Below are positions 3,825 to 32,822 of a DNA stretch of 64,000 nucleotides, piece after piece. Source of the DNA: an uncultured candidatus Porisulfidus sp. (GTDB lineage: Bacteria > Pseudomonadota > Gammaproteobacteria > Poriferisulfidales > Poriferisulfidaceae); the NCBI GenBank assembly GCA_965204575.1, contig OZ241993.1, positions 1,696,001 to 1,760,000 of the forward strand, read 5' to 3'. The notes beneath the pieces were generated by a model. That model saw nothing but the letters and a program-made list of their open reading frames with translations, was not told the origin of the DNA and did no database searches. Positions within the stretch are counted from its first letter, which is position 1, and the number at the start of each line of letters is the position of its first letter. A program made the position numbers and the translations under genes.

Positions 3825-3837
3825 CTACTGCACCATT

Positions 3838-10318: not shown

Positions 10319-10394
10319 TTCTGATGAATTCCATAGCACCCAAAGCGCGATCTTTGACTGGTTGCTCCGTGATTGCAGGATTTGGAAAATTCCC

Positions 10395-10904
10395 TTACAG
10401 AAGAGTTTTAAAGCTAGTTACTTTTGATCTGGAGCGATGTCTTTGTGCCCATTCAATGAGGAGTTGATCCGCATCTTCCAAGGTCATTTGGCCGTTGCGG
10501 ATAAGGCCAACAATTAAGTCTTCTGTCTGGCAAAACCGCAAGCCCTTGCTTCGCCGCTCCCCCTCTGTACGTGCCCTCCTATCCTGAACCCCCGCCACCA
10601 AGTTTCGAGTAATCGCTACTGCAAGAACGGCGCATTCACCAGCATCCAATCGACCGCTGGCGTGCAGATTGGCAAAAAGTTCCACCTCTTTAACATCTGT
10701 TACCCGCTCGAAATCAAAAATGCCTGAACTGATCGCTTTCTGTAGGGCTTTTTTCTGTTCCGGCTGTGTTATTTCTACGAGCACTTGATCAAGAAGTAGG
10801 ACCCGAAATCCAGCATGTCCCAACAGGCCAACACGTCCAACCTTCAAAAAATTCAAAAGTATCGACGTGTCGATTACTACTGTGGGCGGATTCTGCTGTG
10901 GCAC
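10395..10904 (-). CDS. PIN-domain ribonuclease (DUF3368-like toxin)
   Basis: VVIDTSILLNF, V..EI and LDAGE..LAVA...QDRRAR motifs. GTG start at 10904 follows GGAGGAG. Confidence 0.75.
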   Translation of the reverse strand: MPQQNPPTVVIDTSILLNFLKVGRVGLLGHAGFRVLLLDQVLVEITQPEQKKALQKAISSGIFDFERVTDVKEVELFANLHASGRLDAGECAVLAVAITRNLVAGVQDRRARTEGERRSKGLRFCQTEDLIVGLIRNGQMTLEDADQLLIEWAQRHRSRSKVTSFKTLL

Positions 10905-10923
10905 TGCTGACTTAACTCCTCCA

Positions 10924-12168
10924 TCACAACCCCACAGCTTCCGCCAAATCAAGCGTCATTTCATCATCGATGTGAAGCAATCGGCCTATTTCTAGAAGTC
11001 GATTCTGCGAAATTTCCCCACGCCGCCAAGCTTCCAAGGCAAGCGGCAGGATTTGCCATTTCAAATCATGATCTTCATGGTTTTCTGCCGGGGCTTGACT
11101 TTCTTCTCCCTCCAGCATCTCGTTGGTTTGAAGCGCGTCTAAGTAGCATCTGGCCATGTCCGTTTGATCCAGCAGGATTTTCGCTTCATGCGCACTTATG
11201 ATGTTTAGGCCTCGCAATCTCCAAACTGCGGCCGAATAGCTTACTCCGAAATTCCGGCCGAATAAGGCAACATCTGGGTAGGTAATATGTTGCGACCGTG
11301 GCGGCACACGCAGTTCCCCTCGAACAACCTGCTCTTCCACACTATCCATAACCGTCTCTTCGCGACGTGAACTACGGCCCTTGCCAAGTTCGTATATGAA
11401 ATCCCTCGCACCGGCTTCCGGAACCAGAAATGCTGCCGCAAAGGCATTTGCTCGTTGCTCTCTCACATGCTTGGCGTTATGTCGGCTAGTAACGGTAGCC
11501 TGATGAGCCCTATCCATCAGAGCATGTCCATATTCATGAGCATAGGAGAACCGCTGACGCACTGGCGATTGCCCTCCATTGACTAGAATTCCCATACCAA
11601 ACTCTAGGCTCTTCAAGAAAAGCCCAGATACCTCGTCGGATAATTGCAAGGCAGCAGTCCAAATTCCTTGGGACCCAATAAGCTTGGGAATTGAGAATAT
11701 TGGTGCCAAGCCAAGCCCGAGACGCCGCCGTTCCTGGTTGGCCACATCTTGACCCTGTGCAATCGCGAGCCCCGTTGACCGAGGTTCTGGAAGCTCATAA
11801 CGAGGCAACACGCCCATGGAAACTCGGCCAAGTAAATTTACTAGGGAGGCACCCGCAGAAAACAGGCGAATACAGTGTCTGGCCTGTTTCTCCACTGCTT
11901 CATTTTCTAAACTCGGTTCAGCTCGAAATAGAGCAAAGACAGGATCTTCGAGCGGCGCATCTGGATTCACAAACCACTCAACAGAGCGACCATACAATTC
12001 AGCAAGGCGCATTAGTTCTAGCGTGGAAACTTGGCGTTTCCCTGACTCCATCAAACTAATTGCTGAACTCTGGAGTCCGACTCCAGCCGCCACTGCGCTT
12101 TGGGTAAGCCCTCGACTCTCACGGGCGACCCGTAGCCGCTCTCCAAATTGTTTAGTGCTGATTGGCAT
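10924..12168 (-). CDS. XRE HTH fused to an ImmA/IrrE Zn-metallopeptidase
   Basis: N-term XRE HTH (RGLTQ..VA...AISLMESGKR); RQRFSYAHEYGH (HExxH), EQRANAFAAAFL, FGVS. GGAGG precedes the ATG at 12168. Confidence 0.9.
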   Translation of the reverse strand: MPISTKQFGERLRVARESRGLTQSAVAAGVGLQSSAISLMESGKRQVSTLELMRLAELYGRSVEWFVNPDAPLEDPVFALFRAEPSLENEAVEKQARHCIRLFSAGASLVNLLGRVSMGVLPRYELPEPRSTGLAIAQGQDVANQERRRLGLGLAPIFSIPKLIGSQGIWTAALQLSDEVSGLFLKSLEFGMGILVNGGQSPVRQRFSYAHEYGHALMDRAHQATVTSRHNAKHVREQRANAFAAAFLVPEAGARDFIYELGKGRSSRREETVMDSVEEQVVRGELRVPPRSQHITYPDVALFGRNFGVSYSAAVWRLRGLNIISAHEAKILLDQTDMARCYLDALQTNEMLEGEESQAPAENHEDHDLKWQILPLALEAWRRGEISQNRLLEIGRLLHIDDEMTLDLAEAVGL

Positions 12169-12253
12169 GTCCCTACCTCCTCTGAGAAGATTTTCACATC
12201 CCATAGATCAATTTTTCCATACAATGCATGAAATTACAAGTTTTTGGATAAAA

Positions 12254-12282
12254 TTGACATTTTAGATTAGATAATCTAAAAT
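12254..12282 (+). promoter_or_regulatory. Sigma70 promoter overlapped by a palindromic operator
   Basis: TTGACA (12254-59), 17 bp, TAAAAT (12277-82). Perfect inverted repeat ATTTTAGATTA-GA-TAATCTAAAAT at 12259-12282. Confidence 0.75.
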
Positions 12283-12445
12283 TTTTAGCAGCCAATTTCA
12301 AAAATGAAAATGCAACCAATACTCTGGAGAAAAAAAGAAAATGGCAAAAAAAAATGGAATGGATGGATTATTCGGGAGGGCGGCACGCCACCCCAACCTG
12401 CGCATGTGCTAAACACAAATTTAAGTGCAAAAGGAGGTGGTGAAT

Positions 12446-12562
12446 ATGAGAAGAATTAAATGTAGGTGTTTACGGACACGTCGGAGATCCGGACGAAAAG
12501 TTGTTCGTGTACGGTCACATGTTCGGTCTAGGCCGGGCTCAATTTCTAGGCGCTGCCGGTAA
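12446..12562 (+). CDS. 38-aa arginine-rich micropeptide (below the ORF-track cutoff)
   Basis: AAGGAGGT 7 nt before the ATG. Translation MRRIKCRCLRTRRRSGRKVVRVRSHVRSRPGSISRRCR. Confidence 0.6.
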   Translation: MRRIKCRCLRTRRRSGRKVVRVRSHVRSRPGSISRRCR

Positions 12563-12643
12563 GTGGCAGATTTGATTAACCGTGGCGTGCCGCTCCCCGA
12601 AACCGTTTCAATCTCAAACATCTGAAGAAAATTACATCATCCC

Positions 12644-13879
12644 TCAGGTCACTGCCCTTTGCATGGACAACACCACCCGCGTAAACCCTCCGGACACCTC
12701 GAACGAAGGTGCCGGCAGACGGAATTCTTCGACCTGCGCGAGCGCCTTGTCAATTCCGCTGCCGCGGTCCTCGCTGAAACCGAAACGGCGCATCAGGGAA
12801 ACCAGCGCCTCGTTGCGCGACCGCGGAGGCATGTCGACCAGACGGAGTTTATCGAGCAAGGGTTCGCCGGGGTTCGTAATCTCGACCCGGCTGTCGAAAA
12901 TCTCCACCATCGGGCCTGCCCCCGTCACGGTGAAATCCTGATGGATGAGCGCATTCGTGACCAATTCACGTACCGCGAGCGGGGGATACGCGAAGACCGT
13001 CCTGCGCAAGGCTCCCTTGATTACCTCGCGACTCGGCAACAGGTCGTCAATGTGGCCCGTGACCCCGCGAAGCCCCGCCGCATATCCCATGCCGTGGGAC
13101 CGCTCGACCGCGCTTCCGGTTCGGTCGTCCCCCGAATACTGAATCACCCGCATGGACTTCCGCCCGAGCCCGGGGAACTCATTGAGATCCTTGGCAAGGA
13201 GGGTCGCTCCAAGGTTGAGGATGTCCCAGCCCCCCGCATCGCACTGGCGGATCAGGCCGTCTCCGGCCAAGGCATCCATGATGCCGCTGCGGCTTTCCGG
13301 CAGCGGAAGGTCTAACAGGTCGAAATAGACCGGATAGTCGAGCAGGCGGAACACCTCGTCCGGAGCCATGTTCTCCAGACACGTCATGGCCTCGAACCGG
13401 GTCCGGTCGAAGGCGCGCCACAATGCCCTCTCTTTTTCCGGGACATTCCTCAGAGGCTTTGTCGTGCTTCCCACCCGCACGTAGTCCATTCCGTTGAAAC
13501 GCACTGGGTGGCGGGCGGCGCAGGCGATTTCCAAAACGACCAACGGCTTTCCATCAAAATCGATGGGATGGAAGCTGAAGTCGATTTTCGGCTCCAGCAA
13601 TCGGAGCAGCCAAGTCTCCAAAGGTTCATTGCCCTTCTTCGCGTGCTGCGGGGAGAACTTCGTGCCGACCGGCACATGCGTATCATCCTCCACGCCCCAG
13701 ACCACATACCCGTATGGCCGGTCATTCAATGTCGCTGCATTGGCCAGCGCTGAGATGTATTCCCCGATCTCCCTCGGATCGGCCTTGTCGCGCTTGAATT
13801 CCAACCACTCCGTCTCGGGCTGGCGGCACAGCGTTCGTGCAAGGTCGGCGAGATAGGCTGCTGTGCGTTGAGGGCTCAT
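12644..13879 (-). CDS. AlbA_2 + HATPase_c_4 (RecG C-terminal-like) ATP-binding protein, probably C-terminally truncated
   Basis: ETEWLEFK, ISALAN, VWGVED; AVRELVTNALIHQDF, VEITNPG, SRNE, EDRGSGI. Ends abruptly at a composition shift. Confidence 0.8.
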   Translation of the reverse strand: MSPQRTAAYLADLARTLCRQPETEWLEFKRDKADPREIGEYISALANAATLNDRPYGYVVWGVEDDTHVPVGTKFSPQHAKKGNEPLETWLLRLLEPKIDFSFHPIDFDGKPLVVLEIACAARHPVRFNGMDYVRVGSTTKPLRNVPEKERALWRAFDRTRFEAMTCLENMAPDEVFRLLDYPVYFDLLDLPLPESRSGIMDALAGDGLIRQCDAGGWDILNLGATLLAKDLNEFPGLGRKSMRVIQYSGDDRTGSAVERSHGMGYAAGLRGVTGHIDDLLPSREVIKGALRRTVFAYPPLAVRELVTNALIHQDFTVTGAGPMVEIFDSRVEITNPGEPLLDKLRLVDMPPRSRNEALVSLMRRFGFSEDRGSGIDKALAQVEEFRLPAPSFEVSGGFTRVVLSMQRAVT

Positions 13880-14083
13880 GTCGCGATTTCCCCTGAACAT
13901 AAAGAGAATCAGGGTATCCATTGTATAAGCACGACCCGCACGTTTGGCAAACACACAAGCGGAAGCCGCCCTGCACGAGGAGGCAGGATTCCGGTTTCGA
14001 ACACGCACCTGGAATCGGGATGAAGAATCTCCTGCGCGGTTTCAATCAAACAACCATCAAGCAAATATTTTTCTATAAAATCA

Positions 14084-14101
14084 TTATATTTCAATCTATT
14101 A
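14084..14101 (+). repeat. 18-bp direct repeat, copy 1 (contains an IHF-like site)
   Basis: TTATATTTCAATCTATTA, identical to 17132-17149. Confidence 0.7.
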
Positions 14102-14325
14102 TATAATATTCCTTTATTTTTTATCAGAAATAATGGATTTTCTATCAAACAAACTTTAGGGTTCCGGGTTATGGGCAATATGAGAACCCCAACCTTCTGG
14201 AACCGCGAGAGCCCCTCACCCTGTTTTCCACCCTCGTCTCCCATACTCATACTGTGGCGGAAGCCCTGAACCCTGTAAACTAATTGGAACCGCATCGCCT
14301 GATTTTCCGTACTGTAGTTTTCGAG

Positions 14326-16785
14326 ATGGGCAACAAAACACCTCCTCAATCACCTGACCCCCCATCAGACCAGAGCGACGTTCCGGCCATCAGGAAACGT
14401 CTTGCCGAACTCTCTGCCGAGCAGCGCGAACTGGAAGCACAACTCGCCGACCTGACCCGCCGACCATCACGCAAGCATCGTCCTGTCGCTCCCGCCAGAC
14501 AAGTGACCTGTGCGTCTCCCCCGGCCGAAAAAATCACCCTGTTCCGCTCCCTGTTCCGGGGACGGGAAGATGTCTTCCCCAAGTTCTGGATCAACACGAA
14601 AAGCGGGAAGTCAGGCTACTCGCCAGCCTGCGCCAACGAGTGGAAGCCCGGGCTGTGCCGCAAGCCAGCCATCAAATGCGGGGAATGCCCCAACAGCGCC
14701 TTCGCCCCGGTGACCGACGCGACCATCGAGCAGCACCTGCGCGGAAGCAACTCGAAAGACCAGGATTTCATGATGGGCATCTATCCCATGCTGACCGACG
14801 AGACCTGCTGGCTTCTGGTCGCCGACTTCGACGGAGACGCATGGCGCCGCGATGCTTTCGCCTTTCTCGAAACCTGCCAAATGCGGAATATCCCCGCTTC
14901 CCTTGAACGCTCCCGTTCCGGAAGCGGCGGCCATGTTTGGATCTTCTTTTCGGAACCCGTCCCGGCCACCCTGGCCCGCCGCTTCGGAACGCGACTTCTG
15001 GCCGAAACCATGGAACGCAGGCCGGAGGTCGGGTTCGGCTCCTACGACCGCTTCTTCCCCAGTCAGGACACCCTGCCGAATGGAGGATTTGGGAACCTGA
15101 TCGCCCTGCCCCTGCAGAAGCGGCCTAGGCAGGACGGCCACAGCCTGTTCGTGGACGAGAAATTCCAGCCTTATGCGGACCAGTGGGAATACCTGTCTTC
15201 GATACGGCGCCTGACCTTGCAAGAGATAGCTGCCCATCTGGAGGAAACCCAGCCATCGGAGTACCTGCCCGGCCTGCATCTGCCCACGAGCGAGGAAGAC
15301 GAAAAGGGTCCCTGGCTGATTCCTCCGTCCCGGGAAAAGCCCAAGATCCCTATCACTGGCCCTCTCCCGGAAACAATCGACATGGTGCTGGGGAATCAGG
15401 TGTACATTGACCGGAGCGGACTGCCCCCGGCTCTAGCGAACCGGCTCCTTCACCTGGCTGCATTCCAGAATCCAGAGTTCTACCAAGCCCAAGCCGTGCG
15501 CCGCTCCACTTTCGGCATCCCCCGAATCATAGGATGCGCAGAACTGCATTCGCGCCATATCGCCCTTCCCCGCGGCTGCCTTGAGCCGGCCGAATCGCTA
15601 CTGTCCTCGCTGGGCATTCGGGTCGCGTTCAGCGATAAACGCAACCCCGGACGCCCCATATCGGTTTCTTTCCTTGGCGAACTGACGCCGGAACAGCAGG
15701 AAGCAAAAGACGCCCTGCTGCCACATGAAACCGGAGTCTTGGCAGCAACCACCGCTTTCGGCAAAACCGTCGTCGCCTCCTCCATCATCGCTGCCCGAAA
15801 AACGAACACCCTGATTCTTGTTCACCGCCGCCAACTTCTCGACCAGTGGGTCGCGCGACTCCAGACCTTCCTGAACATCTCCGATGGCGAGGTCGGAAAA
15901 ATCGGCGGCGGCAAGCGAAATCCGGGCAGCATCGTGGATGTCGCGATCATCCAAAGCCTGGTACGGAAAGGAGAGGTCGATGATCTCGTCTCGGACTACG
16001 GCCAACTGATCGTCGACGAATGCCACCATCTGGCTGCCGTGAGTTTCGAGTCAGTCGCGCGCCGTTGCAGGGCCCGCTATGTTCTCGGACTGTCCGCCAC
16101 GGTCACACGGAAAGATGGCCACCATCCCATCATCTTTATGCAGTGCGGCCCGGTACGTTATCGCGCGAACGCCCGGAAACAGGCTGCCCGGCTGCCGTTC
16201 AGCCATCGGGTGGATGTCCGGCACACCGGGTTTGTCCCTCCTTTGGAAATGGCTGACGAACCACCACCCATCCAACAGGTCTACGCCACCCTGGCCCAAA
16301 GCGAAAAGCGAAACGACATGATCTTCGATGATATTCTGTCGGCCCTTGAAGCCAAGCGGTCGCCTCTAGTCCTGACCGAGCGGAGGGACCATGCGCTGTA
16401 TCTGGCCACACGACTTGCGCCCTTCGCCCGTAACGTCATTGTCCTGCACGGTGGCATGGGGGTGAAAGCCAGACGGACTACGATGCAGAAGCTGGAAAAC
16501 ATCGGAGACCGGGAAGAGCGATTGCTGATTGCCACAGGTCGCTACATCGGCGAAGGTTTCGATGACGCTCGACTGGATACGCTGTTCCTGACTATGCCGG
16601 TTTCCTGGCGTGGAACACTCGCGCAATACGCCGGTCGCCTGCATCGAATCCATCCGGGTAAACGCGAAGTCGTCATTTACGATTATGTCGATGACGCCAT
16701 GCCCGTGCTGGCCCGCATGAGCGACAGGCGGGCAAAAGGCTACGCCAGTTTGGGCTACTCGGTCAATAATCGTCAGGCATCATAG
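14326..16785 (+). CDS. AEP (TOTE-type) primase-like domain fused to an SF2 DEAD/H helicase
   Basis: LFRGREDV, ADFD, ERSRSG.GGHVWIFF, GNLIALPLQ; ATTAFGKT, DECHH, GLSAT, GEGFD, QYAGRLHR. Confidence 0.85.
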   Translation: MGNKTPPQSPDPPSDQSDVPAIRKRLAELSAEQRELEAQLADLTRRPSRKHRPVAPARQVTCASPPAEKITLFRSLFRGREDVFPKFWINTKSGKSGYSPACANEWKPGLCRKPAIKCGECPNSAFAPVTDATIEQHLRGSNSKDQDFMMGIYPMLTDETCWLLVADFDGDAWRRDAFAFLETCQMRNIPASLERSRSGSGGHVWIFFSEPVPATLARRFGTRLLAETMERRPEVGFGSYDRFFPSQDTLPNGGFGNLIALPLQKRPRQDGHSLFVDEKFQPYADQWEYLSSIRRLTLQEIAAHLEETQPSEYLPGLHLPTSEEDEKGPWLIPPSREKPKIPITGPLPETIDMVLGNQVYIDRSGLPPALANRLLHLAAFQNPEFYQAQAVRRSTFGIPRIIGCAELHSRHIALPRGCLEPAESLLSSLGIRVAFSDKRNPGRPISVSFLGELTPEQQEAKDALLPHETGVLAATTAFGKTVVASSIIAARKTNTLILVHRRQLLDQWVARLQTFLNISDGEVGKIGGGKRNPGSIVDVAIIQSLVRKGEVDDLVSDYGQLIVDECHHLAAVSFESVARRCRARYVLGLSATVTRKDGHHPIIFMQCGPVRYRANARKQAARLPFSHRVDVRHTGFVPPLEMADEPPPIQQVYATLAQSEKRNDMIFDDILSALEAKRSPLVLTERRDHALYLATRLAPFARNVIVLHGGMGVKARRTTMQKLENIGDREERLLIATGRYIGEGFDDARLDTLFLTMPVSWRGTLAQYAGRLHRIHPGKREVVIYDYVDDAMPVLARMSDRRAKGYASLGYSVNNRQAS

Positions 16786-22573: not shown

Positions 22574-23356
22574 ATGTCCCCGCTGCTGCCCGTCATTTCG
22601 TTCGCCCTGTACCTGGTTGCCCTAGCGGGCATCATGTCGGACAAATTGAGTCGCAACTCCACGGCCGTCGCCTGGGCGGCAGGCTGCGTACTGCACGCCT
22701 GGGTCCTGTTCGACCCGACCGGGGCTGGAGGAAGCTTCACGTTTACCTTCTTCAATGCCATGGCGTTGACCGCCCTGCTGATCAACGCGCTGGTCCTGGC
22801 CTGGGCCGTATTCCAGCCGACCTGGCATTTGGGTCTGATTACTCTTCCCTGCGCTCTGGCCGCCATCTGGATCGAACCCGCCACAGGCTCACAGGTGACC
22901 ACCCTTCCATGGAGCGTCGGCACGCACATCATGATTTCGCTTCTGGCCTACGGCACACTGATGCTGGCCGGGGCCCAAGCCCTGATGCTGTTGCTGAAAG
23001 AACACCAACTTGCTTCTCGCCATCTAACCGACCGGATTTCTGTCCTATTGCCGCCATTGGACCGGATGGAATCTCTATTGATCAAGATTATTGCGCTGGG
23101 CCTGATCTTGCTTTCAATTGGCCTCGCTGTCGGCGGCAGTGCACTGACCGAACCGTTCAGCCCCGGCATGTTGCACAAGATGACGTTTTCCGCCTTGGCG
23201 TGGATCACACTCGTCGCGCTTCTGTGGGGACATTGGCAATTCGGCTGGCGAGGACGGCTGGCCGCCGGCATGACTCTGGCGGGTCTTGTCTTCCTGATTC
23301 TCGGTTTTCTCGGCACCAAGCTGGTTCTGGAAATAATTATTAATCAACCTGTTTAG
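22574..23356 (+). CDS. ypjD: Cytochrome c assembly family inner-membrane protein (YpjD/CcsA)
   Basis: Multi-TM; LPPLDRME..L, HKMTFS, FGWRGR and GTKLVLE motifs. Confidence 0.85.
   Translation: MSPLLPVISFALYLVALAGIMSDKLSRNSTAVAWAAGCVLHAWVLFDPTGAGGSFTFTFFNAMALTALLINALVLAWAVFQPTWHLGLITLPCALAAIWIEPATGSQVTTLPWSVGTHIMISLLAYGTLMLAGAQALMLLLKEHQLASRHLTDRISVLLPPLDRMESLLIKIIALGLILLSIGLAVGGSALTEPFSPGMLHKMTFSALAWITLVALLWGHWQFGWRGRLAAGMTLAGLVFLILGFLGTKLVLEIIINQPV
23057..23356 (+). repeat. 3' end of ypjD/ccsA, repeated in diverged form at 26605-26906
   Basis: Manual codon alignment gives about 52 mismatches in 300 bp, plus one 2-bp insertion in the copy. Confidence 0.9.
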
Positions 23357-23435
23357 TGGGATATCGTTATCTGATACACATTTCGTAAACTACTTTCATT
23401 AATTAATTTTTAAATAACTAAATAATAAAAATACC

Positions 23436-25466
23436 ATGTCAGAATTAGGCTCAGGCAGGGATGCCGTCGCAAATTACATCAATATTTGCCACACGATTGC
23501 AGATTCATACCCAGAAAGTATTGCGCATGGTTTGCAAAAAGACGCCATACAGAATTCCGTTGATGCCCGTAAAAGCAAGAGACTTCCCGTGCATGTCGAG
23601 TTCCAGGTGATTGAAAATGAGCGCGGCACTTTCTTGACTTTCACCGACAGCAATACTGTTGGGCTGACTGGGGATGTAGTGAATTCCGCATCAGATTACA
23701 GCAATCTCAGAAGCGATGACCACTGGGCACGATTTGAAGCATTCGCCTTCACCAAGGACGATCCTGATGCACTAGGTGCCAGAGGACAAGGAAAATTCAT
23801 TTTCCTTCGTGCGTCCCAGCAATACAAGATGGTGTATGACACTTTGCGAGACGACGGCACATACCGGCTTGGCGCCACGCAAGCGACGGAAACTGGTCGT
23901 CCAGTGTATCCCCAATACGGCGAAAGCTGGGAAGACTCAATTGCGGCAGCCAAGCTATTCGAGCTCTGCGGCTTAGAGCCTTTGAGGGAAGTCGGAACGA
24001 GGATTATCGTCTGTGACCCACTGCCAGAGGTTTTAGAGGAAATTGAAAGCGATGATTTCGAGAGGGCGATTCAGGAGACATGGCTTCGCGCTATTGATAA
24101 AAAACAATTGAATGTGCGAATCAATTCAGCACAAAACAGCAAGGAAATCAGTATGCCGTTTCCATATCCATTGCCTGACGTTGACACTCCGAACGTCAAA
24201 ACCTGGATATATGGCAGGGATTTTAATGATTTTGAAATCATCTCGGCTGACGGGACATTCAAGATCAAAAAGTTTCATGCTGTTTTCTTCCGTGAAAACG
24301 ACATCCGGGACGATCTCCAAGGAATTGCGATCGTGCAGAACGGCATGAAAATTTCCTCGCTTAATATGGAGATGGCTCCTGCTGATATTTCCCGAGGAAT
24401 CACTGGATTCATTGAATTCGACCGGGAGCTTGACCGAGAGTTACGCAAAGGAAGGAACCAGAGCCCGAATCATTACAGCCTGAAGTGGCGAAGCTCCACT
24501 CCACGAGCAATAAAGCAATTCATCATTAAACAGCTGGATGCGTTCGGACGACAGAAACTCGGCATTGGAGAGAATGAAAAAGAAAAGCAGAGACGTCTTC
24601 GAAATAGTGCAGAAAAGGAAGCCATGGAACTGTTCCGCCGTTTCGCTCCTGATATTGACTTGCGGACTCCACGCCCTGGACCTGGGCCGGGGCCCTCTCC
24701 AGACCCAAACCCTGATCCCAAACCGCCCCCGCACAAGGAAATTGGATTGATGGCCCGCGCAAAGTTTCCAGATGAAGGGAAAAAGCCTAGAGTCGACTGG
24801 GGTGAAACGATATTTCTGTTCGTACAGATTTTCAATAAAACTACTGATTTTGTAGAAGGGCTATTATCAGCCCGGGTTCTTTCAGGCGACTCGTGCATAG
24901 AAGTATTACTGGATAATAGTCACGTAGAGTTAGGGCCTAGCGAAAATGGGCCATTTGTAGTGAAGCCAGACAACACCTCACCAACCACGGTGGGCATTGA
25001 TGCCTCTCGCTACAAAGTCCCTGGGGAATACCGTATCAGGCTTGTGCTGACCGATGCCGAAACTGGGAGCCAGCTGGATATTCGCACAGTGAGATTCTGG
25101 GTGGAAGATAATCCTCCCCACCGCATGCCTTTTAATCTGGAACCCGCTGAACTCCCTACGCGCCGTGCGTGGCACCCCCATGGCGACCTCCACGATGACC
25201 CTACCATCTACTACAATACGTTGCACCCTGAATATCGTTGTGCGCAAGAAAGTGAAGAGGAGCAGGCTGACTATCTCTTCACCATCTGCCTAGAAGGTGC
25301 ACTGCATTTCATCCTGACCCGCCCACATACAGACCAAGGGCCTGATTACCATCCCTTGGATACTGACAAAATTGTAAAGAGTGGTGAGGATATGATGCCT
25401 GAAAAAGTCTTTGAGGAAATTAGCAGGTATATGTCGGAAGTCCTCTGGCGGCGTTTTAGAGAGTAG
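23436..25466 (+). CDS. MORC-like GHKL ATPase with Pro linker and Ig-like domain
   Basis: Bergerat motifs KDAIQNSVDA, DSNTVG, GARGQGK, GTRII; PGPGPGPSPDPNPDPKPPP linker; beta-rich domain; IYYNTLHP. Confidence 0.75.
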   Translation: MSELGSGRDAVANYINICHTIADSYPESIAHGLQKDAIQNSVDARKSKRLPVHVEFQVIENERGTFLTFTDSNTVGLTGDVVNSASDYSNLRSDDHWARFEAFAFTKDDPDALGARGQGKFIFLRASQQYKMVYDTLRDDGTYRLGATQATETGRPVYPQYGESWEDSIAAAKLFELCGLEPLREVGTRIIVCDPLPEVLEEIESDDFERAIQETWLRAIDKKQLNVRINSAQNSKEISMPFPYPLPDVDTPNVKTWIYGRDFNDFEIISADGTFKIKKFHAVFFRENDIRDDLQGIAIVQNGMKISSLNMEMAPADISRGITGFIEFDRELDRELRKGRNQSPNHYSLKWRSSTPRAIKQFIIKQLDAFGRQKLGIGENEKEKQRRLRNSAEKEAMELFRRFAPDIDLRTPRPGPGPGPSPDPNPDPKPPPHKEIGLMARAKFPDEGKKPRVDWGETIFLFVQIFNKTTDFVEGLLSARVLSGDSCIEVLLDNSHVELGPSENGPFVVKPDNTSPTTVGIDASRYKVPGEYRIRLVLTDAETGSQLDIRTVRFWVEDNPPHRMPFNLEPAELPTRRAWHPHGDLHDDPTIYYNTLHPEYRCAQESEEEQADYLFTICLEGALHFILTRPHTDQGPDYHPLDTDKIVKSGEDMMPEKVFEEISRYMSEVLWRRFRE

Positions 25467-25470
25467 TGTT

Positions 25471-26172
25471 ATGGCTGTACTTCTAAGAGTAGTCGTAAAC
25501 CTCACAGGGCAAGAAGAGGAAATCAAGGTCTACCATCCGCCTGGGGAACTTTCTAGAGAGAATCAGAAACGTGCGGACGATCTCGACGAATTTCTAGCGA
25601 AAGAAGTGCCGGTATCGGCCGAACGAACCATGCACCTGCCAGATCAGGCTCACCCTATGCGGAAGTGGTACTTATTTGGTCAGGAACTCCGGCGGATCGT
25701 GGACGGTAATGAACTAGTGCTAGATCGAGACTTGAAAGAAGGATACATATGGGAGGCAATTAAACAACACCTTCCAGAAAGTTTCGGCTTGAAGGGAGCC
25801 GGGCAGGCTCGAATGAGAAAATCAAAGACGCACCTATCTTCCAACCGGGGGCACCTACCTGTGTGCTATGCAGTAGCACATTATGGTTGGGAGGATGTGA
25901 GTTGGATTCGCCGTTGGACCGATTGGTGTGCTATTTATTACCGTGAGAGTATGTGGAAAGATCGCAGAGTACTAGTTTCTCTTCGGAAAGAGATCGAAAA
26001 CATGAAAACATACCCCAAAGGTACTGAATTCAGGGAAATCATAGGCAACTTAGCAAAGCAAACGACGAAAAAGAACCTAGAGGTGCTTGATGATTCCACT
26101 ATTGTCGAGAAGGTTCACCGTGCAGTTGTGCAAGCAAGACTCAAGAAAGACGGAACGGAAAGTTCCGAATGA
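25471..26172 (+). CDS. Hypothetical helical, Trp-rich protein coupled to the GHKL ATPase
   Basis: ATG 4 bp after the ATPase stop, 233 aa, no recognised family. Confidence 0.7.
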   Translation: MAVLLRVVVNLTGQEEEIKVYHPPGELSRENQKRADDLDEFLAKEVPVSAERTMHLPDQAHPMRKWYLFGQELRRIVDGNELVLDRDLKEGYIWEAIKQHLPESFGLKGAGQARMRKSKTHLSSNRGHLPVCYAVAHYGWEDVSWIRRWTDWCAIYYRESMWKDRRVLVSLRKEIENMKTYPKGTEFREIIGNLAKQTTKKNLEVLDDSTIVEKVHRAVVQARLKKDGTESSE

Positions 26173-26319: not shown

Positions 26320-26544
26320 ATGAGCGGATCAAGCCCCAAAAGCTATACGGCCGTTGTCGAACGTTGCCCAGATACAGGACTCTATGTCGGTTACGTCCCC
26401 GGTTTTCCCGGTGCATATAGCCAAGGTGAGACGCTTGAGGAACTCAACGACAACCTCAAGGAAGCTATCGCCATGATACTCGACGACGGCATGCCTGCAA
26501 TGGCGGGAGAATTTGTCGGCACGCAAGTTGTCGTGGTGGCCTGA
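26320..26544 (+). CDS. hicB: HicB family antitoxin
   Basis: YTAVVE..TGLYVGYVPGFPGAYSQGETLEEL..NLKEAI. Confidence 0.85.
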   Translation: MSGSSPKSYTAVVERCPDTGLYVGYVPGFPGAYSQGETLEELNDNLKEAIAMILDDGMPAMAGEFVGTQVVVVA

Positions 26545-26550: not shown

Positions 26551-26610
26551 GTGCCTCTGGTCCCTGTCCTCAAGCCGCGAGAGGTGATAGCCCTCCCCAA
26601 AGCACTGGAC
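26551..26610 (+). pseudogene. hicA: HicA toxin 5' remnant
   Basis: GTG-PLVPVLKPREVIAL..AL matches HicA N-termini, then runs into the ccsA copy. Confidence 0.6.
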
Positions 26611-26906
26611 TGCATGGGATTCCCACTAATCAAGATTATCGTCCTTGGCCTGATTCTGCTTTCAATTGGCCTCGCACTGTCGGCGGCAGCGCACTGACCA
26701 AACCATTCAGCCCCGGGATGCTGCACAAAATGACGTTCTCCGCCTTGGCGTGGGTCACGCTCGTCGCACTTCTATGGGAACATTGGCAGTTCGGCTGGCC
26801 AGGACGGCTGGCCGCCGGCATGACGCTGGCAGGCATCGTCTTTCTAATCCTGGGTTTTCTTGGAACAAAACTGGTGCTAGAAATAATTCTAAGCCCGCCT
26901 ATTTAA
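26605..26906 (+). pseudogene. Frameshifted copy of the ypjD/ccsA 3' end
   Basis: Encodes HKMTFSALAW...FGW.GRLAAG...GTKLVLE, with a 2-bp insertion near 26675. Confidence 0.9.
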
Positions 26907-26966
26907 CCAACTCAAAACTGTCATGGGGCAATTTGAAGAATATATCACGCTCCGATGACGCTGAGA

Positions 26967-29699
26967 TTAGCGTCGCGCGGCAGCTGAAAGGCGACGAAAC
27001 TCTGGAAAGTCGCTAAGAGCTGGGGCTACCGACAAGATTTGATCTAGTGCATCGGACAAGTCATCAGGAATAATGTCGTCTTCGGAAGTTCCTATAGTCG
27101 AATCAAGTAACCGCAAAAATGCCCTTGCTTTAGGCTCATCGTCAATGAGTACAAGTTTCTTTATCCCATTTTCATCGCCATAAAGATCGTAATCAATCAT
27201 TGACCAGCATCTAAATGGCACCAGAAAACGTTCAATTAAATCTACAGTCTCGGCAAAAGCAGTCTTGGAGGTGGCAGGCAAAACTGCTAACGCACGACTA
27301 ATATCTGGTGTAGTCAGAGAGCGTTCTTGTGGCCACACATTTTGGAGGAAAGGTTTCGCGGATAAACGAAACAGGTCTTCTGCCGACAACACAGTGCCAT
27401 TTTCGAGTTCCTTTCCAGAAAGATCCTGTATAAATCGCCGAATAGTATCAGCCGCTGCTACACGAGTTTCACTGTCAGAGGATCGGAGCATTTGTTGAAT
27501 GCGAGAGTTAGCGACCGCTGGTTCACCGCTTTCTCGTAAAGCATGTAGGGAATCGACAACGAGACTAAAAACGAGGCTTTCTCGCTCATCACGACCGAGT
27601 CGCTGATCAGTAACCTTGTTGACCATATCAGGGCCAATAATTTCTAAGACTTCGGCATATTGCCTCTGTCGTGCGACAGAGACCCAAAGAACTAGAGATT
27701 CTTCTCCATCTTCTTGAAGAGGAGAGATCAAATGCTTTTTTGTCCAAGCAAGGTCAGCACGAAAAAAATACGGTAAGTGCTCAATCAATCGGTATCTTGC
27801 AATCAAACCACTCTGGCCTTTAGCTTGTATTACTTTATTTCGCATTTGGCGCAACGCACTTCTGGGCGTAAAAGGATTCATGCTTTTCTTTAGTCTGGGA
27901 CATGCTGCTAGAAATACGCCAATGAGTCTTCCTGATGGTGTGTTAAGCGTATCAATATCTTTAACCTGTTGATTGTCTCCCTCAGAAACAGGCCAAACAT
28001 TCAAATTTATATCATCTTCTGGTTCACGCTCAGCGTTAGTCGCTTCAACAGCAATTGGCCAAATTCGCAACCAAACTGGTGTCCCTAAAGGCGACGCGAC
28101 AACTTGTCTATCCCAAGCACCCAACCAACTGCTAATACCTGCGATAGCGCTTGACAGAGTTGACTTAGACAGTTTTTTTAACAGTATGAGGACTCGTTCT
28201 GCTTCAATTATTGAGTCGCGCCGCAAAATCTTTTCTTCCACAGGCTGCTCAGGTCTGTGTCTCCAGCCAAAGCCACCCCACACATGCGGAAATTCATTCT
28301 TATCGCTCTGAATAGACTCTAGGTCCTCAAGAATAAGGGTTGCTTTCCCTGGTTGCTGCAACCAAGCATCTGCTGCCGCTGCAGAATCATTGTCCCAACT
28401 GTTCTGCTCACTCCCCAAAGCCTTTTCTAAAGCGTGGAGGCGTTGACCTCCTTGGAGAAAATCGTACTGATCATCGGGATGAGAAATTACCCTAGAGGCT
28501 TCAGGACATTCAGGGAAATCCTCTTCCAGAGTCATCCCAGAAAGATCAGGAAATTGCGTGATTTCTGCCTTCAGCCAAGTCTGCGCTTTATCTGACAACT
28601 TGCCCCCTGCCAACTCTATGCGCCTTAATTCCCGAAGAATCCAACGTAGGCGTATGTTTTCTATCCTCTCCAGACCTAATTCTTTTGCCCAATAGCGATG
28701 TGGTGGGCCTTTCCGGAGTCGGGTAATTATGGCTTTTTGTGTTTGATGGCTGAAGGCAGAATAACGTCGTGCTCGGAGTGCAGAAATTTCTGGATATTGC
28801 CTAGTATCCCAAAACTGATTTAGATCAAGTTCAGAAAAAAATGTTTCAACCTCCTCTGCTAGCGCCAAGGAAGGATCCAGTGCAGTAGCAGCCCATAACC
28901 GAGCATGGACGGGAGAACTACTGAAAAGCCAACGTTGGACAAATGGTCGTGCTGACGTGCTTCTCAATTTCGCGAGATGTACTACAACAGCATAAAGAAG
29001 CTTGACTACGGGGGCTATGCCGCGACTATAAGCATCAGGTTCAATTCTCTCGTAAAAGCCATGAGTTTGTTGTCCGTAGCCCGCCCAACGTAGTTGACCT
29101 AATCGAAAAGACCACTTCATGCCATCCCAGCCGATTCGGCGAGCGATGTTTAATCCACGGTTCATGGCAGCATCAAGTCCATCTGCCAAAGCAATCAAAA
29201 ACGAAATTTCTTCGATCTCTTCCAAGTCCAAGTAATTCAAAATAGTAAGTCTATTGCTCGTTAATCCCGCCCATAGTAAGTGGTCGAATGTCCTAGGGCG
29301 ATGAGGTTTTTTAATTTCCCCGTACAGCGAAGGTCCAACTGGCTTAACTTCTAGATATGGTTCAACAGAGTTCACAATTTGAGAGATGATCGCACCAGAT
29401 CTATCTCCATCTTCAAGTCGTTTTTGGATAATTGCCATTGATACGTCATCATCAACGAATTCATGAGACCAGCTTTCTTCAATTAATCGCCACGCACTTC
29501 TCCAAGGTTCGGCGATTTTGCGCCCGTCCATCCCATTTAATACACGAATGATTGCCATTCGCTCAACATGCTGGCTTGGGCTCAACTGTAATGCCCATTC
29601 GATTGCATCGGAATCAGTAAGTCGATTTTTCACAAAGGAAACAACCGTCCAAAATGTTGTTTGGTCTTTGCCCGTGAGAATAACTTGGTCAGAAATCAC
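26967..29699 (-). CDS. Dsr1-like helical C-terminal part, encoded as a separate ORF
   Basis: C-term PF.Q.VWPQERSL.TP..S..LA and L..ALDQI..AP.L...FRRL resemble Dsr1 C-termini from recall. GGAG plus GTG start at 29699 (alternative ATG 29717). Confidence 0.65.
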   Translation of the reverse strand: MISDQVILTGKDQTTFWTVVSFVKNRLTDSDAIEWALQLSPSQHVERMAIIRVLNGMDGRKIAEPWRSAWRLIEESWSHEFVDDDVSMAIIQKRLEDGDRSGAIISQIVNSVEPYLEVKPVGPSLYGEIKKPHRPRTFDHLLWAGLTSNRLTILNYLDLEEIEEISFLIALADGLDAAMNRGLNIARRIGWDGMKWSFRLGQLRWAGYGQQTHGFYERIEPDAYSRGIAPVVKLLYAVVVHLAKLRSTSARPFVQRWLFSSSPVHARLWAATALDPSLALAEEVETFFSELDLNQFWDTRQYPEISALRARRYSAFSHQTQKAIITRLRKGPPHRYWAKELGLERIENIRLRWILRELRRIELAGGKLSDKAQTWLKAEITQFPDLSGMTLEEDFPECPEASRVISHPDDQYDFLQGGQRLHALEKALGSEQNSWDNDSAAAADAWLQQPGKATLILEDLESIQSDKNEFPHVWGGFGWRHRPEQPVEEKILRRDSIIEAERVLILLKKLSKSTLSSAIAGISSWLGAWDRQVVASPLGTPVWLRIWPIAVEATNAEREPEDDINLNVWPVSEGDNQQVKDIDTLNTPSGRLIGVFLAACPRLKKSMNPFTPRSALRQMRNKVIQAKGQSGLIARYRLIEHLPYFFRADLAWTKKHLISPLQEDGEESLVLWVSVARQRQYAEVLEIIGPDMVNKVTDQRLGRDERESLVFSLVVDSLHALRESGEPAVANSRIQQMLRSSDSETRVAAADTIRRFIQDLSGKELENGTVLSAEDLFRLSAKPFLQNVWPQERSLTTPDISRALAVLPATSKTAFAETVDLIERFLVPFRCWSMIDYDLYGDENGIKKLVLIDDEPKARAFLRLLDSTIGTSEDDIIPDDLSDALDQILSVAPALSDFPEFRRLSAAARR

Positions 29700-30897
29700 T
29701 AGGTGTATCTCCCGCATTTTCTCTATTTACTCTCACAATGGCATCAAGCCATTCCATATCTGCTTTTACTTTAGATGCTATTTCTGATAAGTGGATACGT
29801 TCACTACTGTTACTCCTTCTGAAGAAGTGATCGAAAAGATCTCGATCTGTATCGGTAGCACTTCCTCGCGGGTTTTTAACAATTCGGCGAATTTCTTTTT
29901 CGACTGCATTTTCTTTTCCATTAATTACAGAAAGATTAGCCCATCGTTCAAAAACCTCATGTAGGACAACATGATCATCACCACTGTGGTAGTGAATTGG
30001 AGTGATTCCGCGAGATTTCCAGTCTTCCAATGCGACAGGGTCTCGTGTGCGTGCACCAAAAAAAGTGAATCGTTCCTTGAGGTCATCAAAGCGATGTCCA
30101 TCTGCAGCAACGGCATTGAGAAGGTATCTCATCGGCGGATCGTTTGCACTATAGCCAACCAACACTAAGCTAAACAAGCGGGCCGCATCGTAGATAAAAT
30201 CGGGAACAATACGTCGCCTTAGATAAAATTCACCAAAATCTTGATCCGAAAGGACAAGTTCAGAATGACGCTTGGGGTCCGTAGCCAGCGCCCCATGGAT
30301 GTGAAGTACTCCTGAAAAATCTATTCGTTTTGTTGGTCGTGGGATTTCCCCTAATGAATAAGTCTCGGGTGAAAGACGAAGGCGCCCACCTGCAGCCTCA
30401 AGCAAGCGATCAAAGTTGGTCGTAACAATCGTTACTGCATTGCCACGAACAGCAAGGCGCATAAGATTTCTATGAATATCCGAGTATTTCTTGCCTTTTG
30501 CACGCAGAATATCATTGACTTTCTGCCTTACTTGGCTATCTCCTTTTGCCCAATCGTCTAAACGGCGTTCAAGCATACCAAGTACAACATCGTAATCACC
30601 GGCAATATACCTTTTCACTTCGGCTGTTTGAAATTGATTAAGACTCGAACAATCCACTCCCCATTTATTGCATATTCCACGTGGCAAATCGACAAGAATC
30701 TGATGCACTGGTGAGTCAAGCTCCTGATACACACTCAACACAAGGTCTCGAAAATCAGGCAGACCTGCTGATTTTGAAATACCTGCACCACAAATAAACA
30801 GTACTTCTCCACGTCCGTGTGCTAGCAATAGACGCTCAGGAATCGGAGGGAGCCCTTCACCAAGGACAATTTCACGATCTTCCTTAATTTGAGTCAT
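29689..30897 (-). CDS. SIR2-family NADase, Dsr1-type N-terminal part
   Basis: IPERLL.AH..G.VLFICGAGIS, VTTNFD, LHIHG, DFG..YL and VGYS.NDP.MRY motifs. Confidence 0.85.
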   Translation of the reverse strand: MTQIKEDREIVLGEGLPPIPERLLLAHGRGEVLFICGAGISKSAGLPDFRDLVLSVYQELDSPVHQILVDLPRGICNKWGVDCSSLNQFQTAEVKRYIAGDYDVVLGMLERRLDDWAKGDSQVRQKVNDILRAKGKKYSDIHRNLMRLAVRGNAVTIVTTNFDRLLEAAGGRLRLSPETYSLGEIPRPTKRIDFSGVLHIHGALATDPKRHSELVLSDQDFGEFYLRRRIVPDFIYDAARLFSLVLVGYSANDPPMRYLLNAVAADGHRFDDLKERFTFFGARTRDPVALEDWKSRGITPIHYHSGDDHVVLHEVFERWANLSVINGKENAVEKEIRRIVKNPRGSATDTDRDLFDHFFRRSNSSERIHLSEIASKVKADMEWLDAIVRVNRENAGDTPSDF

Positions 30898-30965
30898 GTG
30901 TAAATAAGTTTCAATACGCCTGTGTCTACCCTCATTGATGAACAGTTCGAAATCCTGCAATGACT

Positions 30966-32822
30966 TCAAGTTTCCATTTGATATCCGGCAACCGACTTTC
31001 TAATCCCTTCCGTATCCAAGCCCACCGACGCCAACTGTTCCTCACGAGCCCCATGCTCCACATAGTGATCCGGCAGACCCAATTGCAACAACCGCACAGA
31101 ACTATTCAAATCCAAGGCCTCGCTCACCGCGCTGCCCGCCCCGCCTGCCACCACGTTGTCCTCGACCGTCACCAGCAGGCTGTGGGTCCCCGCCACTTCG
31201 TTCAGACACTCTATATCCAGAGGCTTGACGAAACGCATGTCGATCAGCGTCGCATCCAGTTCCTCCGCGACCGGGGCCACCTGATCCAACAAGCTGCCAA
31301 ACACCAGGAACGCGATCTCCCTCCCTTCGCGAACCTTCCGCGCCTTGCCGATCGGGATCGGCTCCAAAGTCTTCTCAACCTCGATCCCCGGTCCCTTGCC
31401 ACGCGGATAACGCACCGCCGCCGGACCTTCGTGCAGATATCCGGTCGTCAGCATCTTCCGGCATTCGTTTTCATCGGACGGCGCCATAATCACCACGCCC
31501 GGCAAACAACGCAAGTAGGACAGGTCGAAAGCACCGACATGGGTCTTCCCATCGTTCCCGACCATCCCGGCCCGGTCGATGGCAAGCAGCACGTCCAGTT
31601 CCTGAACCACGATGTCATGGACCAACTGGTCGTATCCGCGCTGCAGGAATGTCGAGTAGATGGCCACCACCGGCTTCGCGCCCGCACAGGCCATGCCCGC
31701 GCCCACGGTAACCGAATGCTGCTCAGCGATCCCGACATCGAAATAACGGTCCGGATGCTCTTTCTCAAAGCGAACCAAGCCACTGCCCTCCCGCATCGCC
31801 GGAGTGACCGCCATCAATCGGGGGTCCGCGGCGGCCTGGTCACACAGCCACTCGCCGAACACCTGCGTATACGTCGGCCCTCCGCTTGATCCTTTCTTCT
31901 CCACGCCGATTTCCGGATCGAAGGTCGGCACCGCGTGGTAGCCCACGGGGTCTCCTTCTGCCGGCTCGTAGCCCATTCCTTTCTGGGTGATGACGTGCAA
32001 CAGGCGCGGGCCAGTCTGGTCGCGCATCTGTTCTATGACATCCAGCAGTCCCAACACGTCATGGCCACCAACCGGCCCGAAATACTGCACGCCCAGTTCC
32101 TCGAACAACATGCCCGCCGGCAAAATCATTCCCTTGAGCTGCCCTTCCACCCTCATCGCGAACTTTTTCACCCTTGGCACCGAACTCAGCATGCGTTGGC
32201 CGGTTTCCCGCACCGAGGCGTACAGGCTCCCTGCCAGCAGGCGGGTCAGGTAACGGGACATGGCGCCCACATTCGGGGAAATCGACATCTCGTTGTCGTT
32301 GAGGATCACCAGCACGTCTGCCTCGGAAACCCCCAGGTGGTTGAGCGCTTCGTAGGCCAGGCCGGCCGTCAGCCCGCCGTCCCCGATCACGGCCACCGAC
32401 TTGCACGGTTTCCCCGCATTGCGGCTGGCCAATGCCATGCCCAGGGCCGCACTGATCGAGGTGCTGGAGTGCCCCACCCCGAAACTGTCGTAAGGGCTCT
32501 CATGCCGTTCCGGGAACGGCGCCAGGCCCCCCCAGCGGCGAATCGTCTCCAACTGGTCGCGACGCCCCGTCAGGATCTTGTGGCCATAGCTCTGATGCCC
32601 CACGTCCCAGACCAGCCAGTCTTCCGGCGTGTTGAACGCGTAGTGCAGGGCCACGGTCAATTCGATCGCGCCGAGGCTGGCCCCGAAGTGCCCCCCGCAG
32701 CGGGCCACGCCCTGAATCAGGAATTCGCGAAGTTCGTCTGCAACCGCAGGGAGATTCTCGCGGTCCAGCGCGCGTAAATCAGCCGGGCTTTCGATCTTCG
32801 ATAGGAAAGGGAAATCGTCCAC
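30966..32822 (-). CDS. dxs: 1-deoxy-D-xylulose-5-phosphate synthase
   Basis: [46 protein letters not shown]. Confidence 0.97.

Follow-up and report, generated by a model that had tools for sequence, protein, structure and literature searches.

The window analysed here is a stretch of 64,000 nucleotides (nt) from an uncultured candidatus Porisulfidus sp. of the gammaproteobacterial family Poriferisulfidaceae (assembly GCA_965204575.1, contig OZ241993.1, forward-strand positions 1,696,001 to 1,760,000), and within it two adjacent genes, termed A and B, encode a protein of 676 amino acids (aa) with the fold and motifs of a GHL-type ATPase and a basic, tryptophan-rich protein of 233 aa. A and B constitute one horizontally mobile two-gene module in which B is the obligate partner of A, and, judged by its modelled fold, A appears to represent a new family of GHL ATPases with a new obligate partner. 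The module is probably one of DNA-directed defence. The pair had been singled out by an initial annotation, made from the sequence alone, as a MORC-like ATPase and an effector of an undescribed defence system. That it is undescribed was upheld, as a description of the pair was found neither in the sequence libraries nor in the openly readable full-text literature (subscription-only papers not being covered).

Gene organisation

Both open reading frames (ORFs) were borne out at the annotated lengths and with the annotated coupling, gene A running from an ATG to a TAG that is followed by a 4-nt spacer (tgtt) and then by the ATG of gene B. A program-made list of ORFs gives an upstream TTG at 25411 as the start of gene B; the start at 25471 is preferred here because homologues begin at the same methionine (MAV...). 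The AT-rich leader that had been described ahead of gene A is likewise present (Table 1). Scans with promoter and terminator consensus sequences returned 5 sites against a shuffle mean of 4.1 and 5 against 3.7, no excess over the shuffled sequences, and Rfam gave no match near the pair.

A and B as a single mobile unit

One genome per species, from 185,579 species, was scanned with two peptide patterns, which yielded 38 loci (L001 to L038) from at least 13 phyla, archaea included; the number is a lower bound because relatives without the two patterns escape the scan. In 35 of the 38 loci, the gene that immediately follows A, in the same orientation, is a B homologue detected with an iterated profile, at a median distance of 6 nt and within 30 nt in 32 of the 35, so that the co-occurrence proposed as a check on the pair is borne out. 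The three loci without B after A are uninformative or degraded, and comprise a frameshifted A cut by a contig end (L022), a 237-aa fragment of A (L026) and a locus with an IS3-like transposase ORF and a contig end (L029). Pairwise identities among A proteins and among B proteins correlate at r=0.95, a value that 0 of 999 Mantel permutations reach, and the main clades of the A tree recur in the B tree. Both divide cleanly into a long type, in which A has about 670 aa and B about 225-238 aa, and a short type, in which A has about 603 aa and B about 190-205 aa. Because relatedness alone inflates such statistics, the correlation and the mirrored trees demonstrate co-inheritance and not interaction.

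The A tree contains sister pairs that cross phyla with starred support (Pseudomonadales/Spirochaetia, Elusimicrobia/Pseudomonadota, Gammaproteobacteria/Planctomycetota and KSB1/Eubacteriales), as well as a Saccharibacteria copy within Dehalococcoidia and one archaeal copy (Bathyarchaeota). Binning errors in metagenome-assembled genomes (MAGs) may lie behind some of these pairs, although the distribution as a whole is too patchy to be explained in this way. In the closest cases, L009/L011 (Pseudomonadales with Spirochaetia) and L015/L017 (Elusimicrobia with Pseudomonadota), the end branches of both A and B measure 0.02-0.14, and these copies represent either recent transfers or mis-binned contigs.

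Gene A encodes a predicted divergent GHL-type ATPase

A collection of 5.8 billion clusters holds 258 homologues of gene A at E<=0.001 (best E=0), none of them named or carrying Pfam domains, and most are full-length at 660-690 aa. Nothing relevant was found in Pfam even at E<=10, NCBIfam gave 0 matches at E<=1 and PHROGs none; against all sequences of the PDB, phmmer returned nothing and a 43-sequence profile only 2 irrelevant matches at E>=0.28. The sole library match is to the PADLOC model PDC-M33A (E 4.5e-5), which covers residues 31-63 around motif I and 33 of 627 model positions. The initial annotation had expected PADLOC to be silent on the pair, an expectation that held for B and that failed for A by this one match of 33 residues.

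The structural searches were more productive. When an AlphaFold2 model of A built on 43 sequences (mean pLDDT 87.5) was compared with the PDB by Foldseek, the matches at E<=1e-3 numbered at least 500, with probability 1.00 to chains of Hsp90-family and MORC4 ATPases. The top matches are to Hsp90, Hsc82, TRAP1, GRP94 and HtpG (E about 3e-10 over 400-460 columns, at 12-15% identity), and the ATPase module of human MORC4 (7k7t_B) is matched at E 3e-9 with a TMt of 0.56. The consensus motifs of the GHKL superfamily are ExxxNxxD (I), DxGxG (II), GxxGxG (III) and GT (IV). Their counterparts in A, QKDAIQNSVDA (containing D36 and N40), DSNTVGLTG, GARGQGKF and GTRIIV, are kept in 33-35 of 35 family members across both subfamilies. 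A therefore carries the Bergerat fold and the four motifs of the superfamily; however, the catalytic glutamate expected four residues before the asparagine of motif I is replaced by Asp36 in 33 of the 35, the other two being without their N-terminus, and the curated models (Pfam HATPase_c families, NCBIfam) do not recognise the protein. The second, S5/transducer domain that defines the GHL subgroup is found in the same Foldseek matches, which extend over the N-terminal and middle domains of Hsp90 and over MORC4; residues 225-403 are modelled as alpha+beta, and G296, M304, G324, P344 and H346 are kept in 33-35 of 35. On fold and motifs, rather than on any sequence library, A appears to be an ATPase of the GHKL/GHL type whose second domain is transducer-like.

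Beyond this module lies a hinge with 13 prolines in residues 405-432, where pLDDT falls below 50 at 413-424, followed by strands at 436-594 and helices at 598-603, 607-627 and 650-675. N467, G530, Y532, P560, F566 and H597 are conserved in this half, and the strands end in a YNTLHP tail (residues 593-598) whose N594 and H597 are invariant in 43 sequences; an ESM Atlas search with residues 430-676 returned unnamed clusters only. By analogy with the GHL architecture described in the Tiamat preprint (10.64898/2026.09.30.754977), the C-terminal helices are a candidate constitutive dimerisation domain. Outside the ATPase motifs, the polar residues kept across the family are H346, N467 and H597 only, and because they are so few a nuclease-like active site is not seen in A; Pfam, PADLOC and residue conservation likewise reveal no nuclease domain or conserved acidic site in either A or B. 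A search among longer proteins found no fused relatives of A, which is weak evidence.

Most of what the initial annotation had read in A was thus recovered, namely the four motifs, the aspartate in place of glutamate (now seen in every family member with an N-terminus), the transducer-like region, the proline-rich hinge and the NxxHP tail. Its description of A as MORC-like requires some qualification, as the match to MORC4 stands, but Hsp90-family chains rank above it and the MORC motif of the S5 domain is not reproduced exactly.

Gene B encodes a partner of predicted novel fold

Gene B had been annotated as basic, Trp-rich and of no recognisable family, and it fits that description, with a predicted pI of 8.72 (family median 9.1), 7 Trp residues (3.0%) and no family in Pfam, NCBIfam, PADLOC or PHROGs. 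A word search yielded 27 relatives, and a further 1.84 billion representatives searched with a profile yielded 281; the relatives stand alone, as those among the 150 matches listed are 97-343 aa long, and 0 of 149 representatives scanned with Pfam reach a cut-off. The AlphaFold2 model (pLDDT 90.7, pTM 0.85) consists of an N-terminal beta-hairpin followed by an all-helical body. At E<=1e-3, Foldseek found 0 matches to it in the PDB (best 0.57) and 0 in BFVD (best 0.12), and an ESM Atlas search returned unnamed clusters only.

Conservation of 90% or more is confined to G70, L73, W94, Y133, W152 and R188. These residues form no catalytic-looking set, and for this reason the label of effector that the initial annotation attached to B is unsupported; the pattern instead suggests a structural or binding protein rather than an enzyme. 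Two candidate families were considered and not accepted. DUF1016_N (Pfam PF17761), suggested by a resemblance in motif, gave two matches that both fall below the Pfam threshold, one among the 149 representatives (E 3.6e-4, with 21 bits where 32.8 are required) and one among 40 members of the alignment, and DUF6782 matched 5 of 40 members with a best E of 0.0021.

Neighbourhoods of the related loci

A and B are the only gene families that recur beyond 9 of the 38 loci, and A-B alone is the commonest arrangement. Directly upstream of A, 9 loci (L014, L017, L022, L028, L033, L034, L035, L037 and L038) carry c3, a helical protein of 72-92 aa (about 75) with the consensus ...ERFKRIAExRTNAVLDKIRILGNLSN..., which is absent from the window. 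In 5 others (L012, L016, L020, L021 and L027) the same position is held by c5, a protein of about 338-390 aa that by eye has a ribbon-helix-helix-like N-terminus and a winged-helix-like C-terminus, with a weak match to PaaX (E 0.0097); c5 may serve as a regulator or as an accessory subunit that reads DNA. A further family, c24 (170-200 aa), occupies this position in the two archaeal loci. None of c3, c5 and c24 belongs to a family in Pfam or PHROGs. A relation of B to c5 and of c5 to c3 was also considered and rejected, the hhalign probabilities being 1.6 and 0.2. As c3 and c5 each accompany both subfamilies, the A-B system is modular.

Some relatives are linked to DNA modification and repair genes. 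In L023, L025 and L032 a C5 cytosine methylase follows B within the operon, starting between a 4-nt overlap with B and 26 nt after it, and in two of these a Vsr or HhH-GPD gene follows in turn (Table 1); such methylase-linked operons occur in both the long and the short subfamily. A pair of Dcm and FokI-like restriction endonuclease (REase) genes lies just upstream of A-B in L020 and L021, and the latter also has an HhH-GPD gene by A-B. The initial statement that no methylase is present is therefore true of the window, but not of relatives, of which three have the methylase in the operon and two have Dcm/REase genes adjoining.

Among the neighbours within 5 kb, 43 of 269 (16%) match PADLOC models at E<=1e-5, and clear defence or restriction-modification genes lie within that distance in 12 of the 38 loci by the author's reading. 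L006, for example, has GmrSD/HEC-06-like and MzaA genes as well as an HKD-Snf2 gene at a distance of about 5 kb, L014 has AbiD together with a TIR protein, L015 a TIR protein and L004 a type I methyltransferase.

Setting of the pair in the window

The A-B pair lies in a region of the window, at about 23-31 kb, with a GC content of 44-52%, as against about 60-64% in its flanks. The hicB and Dsr1-type neighbours that had been annotated are both present downstream of B. The ORF at 26551-26697 opens with residues that are HicA-like by eye and then enters a ccsA repeat; it is probably a truncated hicA. The two ORFs of the Dsr1-like gene score 199 and 109 bits with the NCBIfam Dsr1 model, far under its cut-off of 1400 bits, and so represent a distant relative of Dsr1. 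Their 29-nt overlap may reflect a frameshift or a genuine split.

The 3' end of the CcsA-like gene (23055-23355) is repeated 3.55 kb downstream at 26603-26905, over about 300 bp (one part of 229 nt with 84% identity and one of 73 nt with 79%). Comparison with the related record L001 shows that the two have in common the stretch ccsA-A-B (83.5%), the hicB piece (89%) and the sequence from dxs onward (90%), and that 26605-30988, comprising the ccsA fragment and Dsr1, is specific to the window. The block A-B-hicB is common to L001 at the same site and is therefore not the most recent insert, so that the initial view of the pair as an insert beside hicB and a Dsr1-type system was not sustained, the window-specific piece being Dsr1 itself. 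From the repeat and the window-specific segment, the gap between ccsA and dxs looks like a recombination hotspot for defence cargo, and it is a variable spot in which cargo has been acquired more than once. In the window the pair occupies a low-GC variable spot by defence genes; across the 38 loci the defence-island signal is moderate.

Elsewhere in the window, a second defence-rich region of lower GC extends over 10-16782 (Table 1). A tRNA-Ser (gct) at 44964-45054 on the reverse strand stands at the edge of a lower-GC stretch (0.54-0.57) within 40000-45054, in which the ORF 43752-44849 matches PADLOC PDC-S45; this stretch may be another integrated element.

Table 1. Features of the A-B locus, of the rest of the window and of the methylase-linked relatives. 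Positions are those of the window unless a related record is named; ranges for the domains of A at residues ~1-220 and ~221-403 are approximate.
Feature	Position	Strand	Remarks
AT-rich leader, CcsA-like gene to gene A	23357..23435	+	79 nt; 8 G/C in final 56 nt (manual count)
Gene A	23436..25466	+	676 aa, ATG start; predicted divergent GHL-type ATPase, Hsp90/MORC-like N-terminal half; ORF and translation
A, Bergerat-fold ATP-binding domain (predicted)	23436..24095	+	residues ~1-220; motifs I-IV
A, S5/transducer-like domain and long helices	24096..24644	+	residues ~221-403
A, Pro-rich flexible hinge	24645..24731	+	residues 404-432
A, all-beta domain	24732..25223	+	residues 433-596; ends in YNTxHP motif
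A, C-terminal helical domain and stop codon	25224..25466	+	residues 597-676
Gene B	25471..26172	+	233 aa; basic, Trp-rich; N-terminal beta-hairpin and all-alpha body; translation
HicB-like ORF	26320-26544		downstream of B; Pfam UPF0150/HicB_lk, E 6e-8 and 3.5e-7
Dsr1-like gene	26967-30969	-	two ORFs, 29-nt overlap
Dsr1-like gene, SIR2 part	29689-30969	-	426 aa
Dsr1-like gene, C-terminal part	26967-29717	-	916 aa
Shedu SduA	10-1113		cut by window start
HEC-05/DUF262-like gene	5483-7603
Unassigned 828-aa ORF	7856-10339
PDC-S70 match	10398-10952
RosmerTA RmrA-like gene	10927-12204
PrimPol-helicase gene	14284-16782
C5 cytosine methylase-Vsr, after A-B	L023, 2830-4949	same as B
C5 cytosine methylase, after A-B	L025, 2364-3194	same as B
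C5 cytosine methylase-HhH-GPD 'nicking endonuclease', after A-B	L032, 2562-4609	same as B	followed by PDC-S06/LmuB-like 751-aa gene

Comparison with known systems

The A-B pair is not of a wholly separate kind, its nearest known relatives being the prokaryotic MORC and paraMORC GHKL ATPases. MORC and paraMORC1-5 are described by Iyer, Abhiman and Aravind (2008, PMC2292703) as prokaryotic GHKL ATPases of restriction-modification systems, and the occurrence of methylase, repair and REase genes with relatives of A-B fits this family into the known theme of GHL ATPases in such contexts. A resembles the proteins described there in its N-terminal motifs I-IV, its S5/transducer domain and its family-specific C-terminal extension, and the loci resemble theirs in their sporadic, laterally transferred distribution in bacteria and archaea and in the linkage of some to cytosine methylases or Vsr-type repair genes. 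However, the S5-domain motif given for MORC in section 4 of that source, GhXhhpXXRhl, is not found in A, where residues 296-306 (GIAIVQNGMKI) fit the glycine and the hydrophobic pattern but have Met-Lys in place of Arg, K305 moreover not being kept in the short subfamily. MORC neighbourhoods are reported to include an SFII helicase in about 70% of cases (PMC2292703), whereas the 38 loci show no recurrent SFII helicase family beside A. The paraMORC additions, namely ExxxH in the S5 domain (pM2), a C-terminal RE-fold nuclease (pM3), TIR (pM4) and an HxH domain (pM5), were not seen among the conserved residues and domains of A when these were set against the main-text description. Unlike those families, A escapes Pfam HATPase_c-type models even at E<=10 and has an obligate partner, B, of which the main text gives no description. 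It is by this main-text description alone that A-B is set apart from the rarer families of PMC2292703.

The likeness to Hsp90, HtpG and TRAP1 resides in residues ~1-430, which match the N-terminal and middle domains (E 3e-10), and in a layout that leads from an N-terminal ATPase through a middle domain and a flexible linker to a C-terminal domain. A differs from them in its low identity (12-15%), in giving no sequence-profile match to PDB chains and in having Asp for the catalytic Glu; its C-terminal half is built differently, from a beta and a helical domain, and A is further distinguished by a partner in its operon and by a mobile, patchy distribution. A also shares a GHL-type ATPase and transducer with Tiamat (10.64898/2026.09.30.754977) and with VcSduA, a GHKL-DUF4263 Shedu protein (PMC12137116), which are proposed in those sources to clamp a substrate and to control an immune output, with methylases and nucleases among some of their neighbours. 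Both are described as carrying a fused PD-(D/E)xK nuclease (at the C-terminus of Tiamat; DUF4263 in VcSduA), but A and B carry none, and neither a DUF3883-like nor a DUF4263 domain of the kind that marks Tiamat or Shedu type I-D was matched in Pfam or PADLOC; the Tiamat and Shedu models of PADLOC likewise match neither protein. PDC-M33 is the only library model that touches A; with 33 of 627 positions covered and B unmatched, A does not qualify as a full-length member, and PDC-M33 is not mentioned in the openly readable full-text literature searched. With respect to classical restriction-modification, Pfam and PADLOC find no linked methyltransferase in the window's island (the methylase being in the operon in 3 of the 38 loci and adjoining in 2 more), and neither A nor B is a recognisable endonuclease.

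Discussion

The explanation favoured here, tentatively and at a likelihood somewhat short of even, is that the A-B pair is a mobile module of an ATPase clamp and its partner that provides DNA-directed immunity against phages or other mobile DNA. ATP hydrolysis, the dimeric clamp, the binding of A to B, the DNA target and the role in defence are all elements that we infer. This model proposes that A forms a dimer held together at the C-terminus, whose N-terminal domains would close upon ATP binding and so clamp a substrate, by analogy with the descriptions of Tiamat (10.64898/2026.09.30.754977) and of MORC-type ATPases (PMC2292703). The aspartate in place of the catalytic glutamate may make hydrolysis slow and switch-like, with a long-lived closed state. 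B would probably act as a stoichiometric, non-enzymatic subunit, responsible for recognising nucleic acid or another target or for coupling A to its substrate. DNA would be the likeliest substrate, and immunity to phages or to other mobile DNA the likeliest role. In the methylase-linked relatives, A-B could take the part of a restriction component while the methylase labels self DNA, and in the lineage of the window, which has no linked methylase, discrimination between self and non-self could be provided by something else or by an unlinked methylase.

Several observations weigh against this explanation. The missing effector is its weakest point, as A and B contain no nuclease or other effector domain and the killing or cleaving step is thus left unexplained; the clamp alone may suffice to stop the invader, a nuclease of the host may be recruited, or a catalytic site may have been overlooked. 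The GHKL assignment itself finds no support in the sequence libraries (Pfam at E<=10; the profile against PDB sequences), and with Asp in the catalytic position hydrolysis could be weak or absent. The defence-neighbourhood signal is moderate: core genes of the window, a small control, gave weak PADLOC matches in 3 of 33 cases (9%) as compared with the 16% of the neighbours, so that the enrichment is suggestive and the control too small to decide, and several of the neighbour matches are to generic ATPases or DprA. Housekeeping genes (histidinol dehydrogenase, peptidase M24, acyl-CoA dehydrogenase) flank many of the loci. In addition, A is interrupted by an internal stop or frameshift, or is a fragment, in 6 of the 38 loci (L005, L013, L019, L022, L026 and L036), through either decay or MAG assembly error, and tblastn of A found no match among 72,556 records of plasmids and 50,697 of phages.

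Other explanations account for parts of the same evidence. An abortive-infection or toxin-antitoxin (TA)-like system, in which A would be an Hsp90-like sensor or chaperone and B a non-enzymatic toxin (such as a growth inhibitor that binds DNA or protein) released on infection, would suit the Hsp90-family chaperones at the head of the structural matches, the tight coupling of the two genes, the basic character and unmatched fold of B, and the TA genes nearby (hicB in the window, MazE-PIN in L019, MazE in L030). We nevertheless consider it unlikely, as nothing speaks for toxicity of B, which also lacks any membrane-spanning or enzymatic signature, the methylase and T:G repair genes within the operons of three loci suggest DNA rather than protein clients, and the intact B found beside a broken A in L005, L013, L019 and L036 speaks against a toxin that needs A as its antidote. 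The repair genes invite a different thought. MutL stimulates Vsr in E. coli, and A, whose GHL architecture is MutL-like, adjoins Dcm and Vsr (L023) or HhH-GPD (L032, L021), so that A might be a MutL-like matchmaker and B an adaptor that aid methylase-linked T:G repair or other DNA transactions, a role with which housekeeping flanks would agree. However, a methylase is nearby in 5 of the 38 loci only, no conserved site like that of the MutL endonuclease is present in A, and the patchy cross-phylum spread, the low-GC island and the rarity of the pair (38 loci in 185,579 species genomes) suit accessory mobile genes better, all of which makes a repair or maintenance accessory decidedly unlikely. 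The window pair could also be all that remains of a larger operon, of a known restriction-modification or (para)MORC kind, after the loss of a methylase, helicase or nuclease, given the Dcm, Vsr or REase genes of relatives, the accessory genes upstream of A elsewhere (c3 in 9 loci, c5 in 5) and the neighbouring Dsr1 that is itself split. Such an origin is improbable where A-B alone is the commonest arrangement and nothing else recurs beyond 9 loci, where accessory genes are shuffled between subfamilies and no SFII helicase is conserved next to A, and where both genes of the window are full-length, with 83% DNA identity to the pair of the same minimal layout in L001.

The mobility of the pair may instead serve the element that carries it, through DNA partition, compaction or entry exclusion, rather than the defence of the host. 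Transfer across phyla, the low-GC hotspot with its duplicated ccsA 3' end and the transposase or insertion sequence remnants near some copies are consistent with this; only a slight probability can be given to it, however, as no integrase, relaxase or replication gene is conserved beside A-B and the plasmid and phage collections searched with A are empty of it. A GHKL kinase with its substrate, of the CapK/CapS or SpoIIAB/SpoIIAA kind, that controls an adjacent immune operon is more improbable still. Two-gene modules of a GHKL protein and a small partner are known beside immune operons (PMC13373217), and Tyr133 is invariant in B; A, however, has the transducer and the Hsp90/MORC-type match of GHL ATPases and not those of the kinase type, Pfam finds no STAS, HTH or wHTH domain in A or B, no conserved operon lies downstream of B, and the Dsr1 of the window is convergent and absent from L001.

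Within the favoured explanation of an ATPase clamp directed at DNA, a more specific mechanism may be envisaged, though it is unlikely to be correct. It would amount to nuclease-free immunity, a prokaryotic counterpart of MORC-type silencing, in which B, as a new-fold partner that reads DNA, loads the ATP-gated clamp A, A traps or compacts invading DNA and blocks its replication or expression without cutting, methylation exempts self where a Dcm methylase is linked, and the aspartate prolongs the clamp.

GHL ATPases (MORC, paraMORC, Tiamat and Hsp90-like proteins) are emerging as immune components in prokaryotes and eukaryotes, and their mechanism is mostly obscure. The A-B pair would be a minimal, two-protein version, with an ATPase family invisible to current sequence libraries, a family-wide Asp at the catalytic position and an obligate partner whose confidently predicted fold has no match in the PDB or BFVD. 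The family occurs almost only in uncultured lineages, among them sponge-associated Gammaproteobacteria, Dehalococcoidia, candidate phyla and Bathyarchaeota, which may explain why screens of cultured genomes missed it. Because no nuclease is apparent, the pair could reveal whether a clamp of this kind on its own senses, silences or recruits, and the methylase-linked relatives would offer a direct test bed for methylation-dependent self-recognition.

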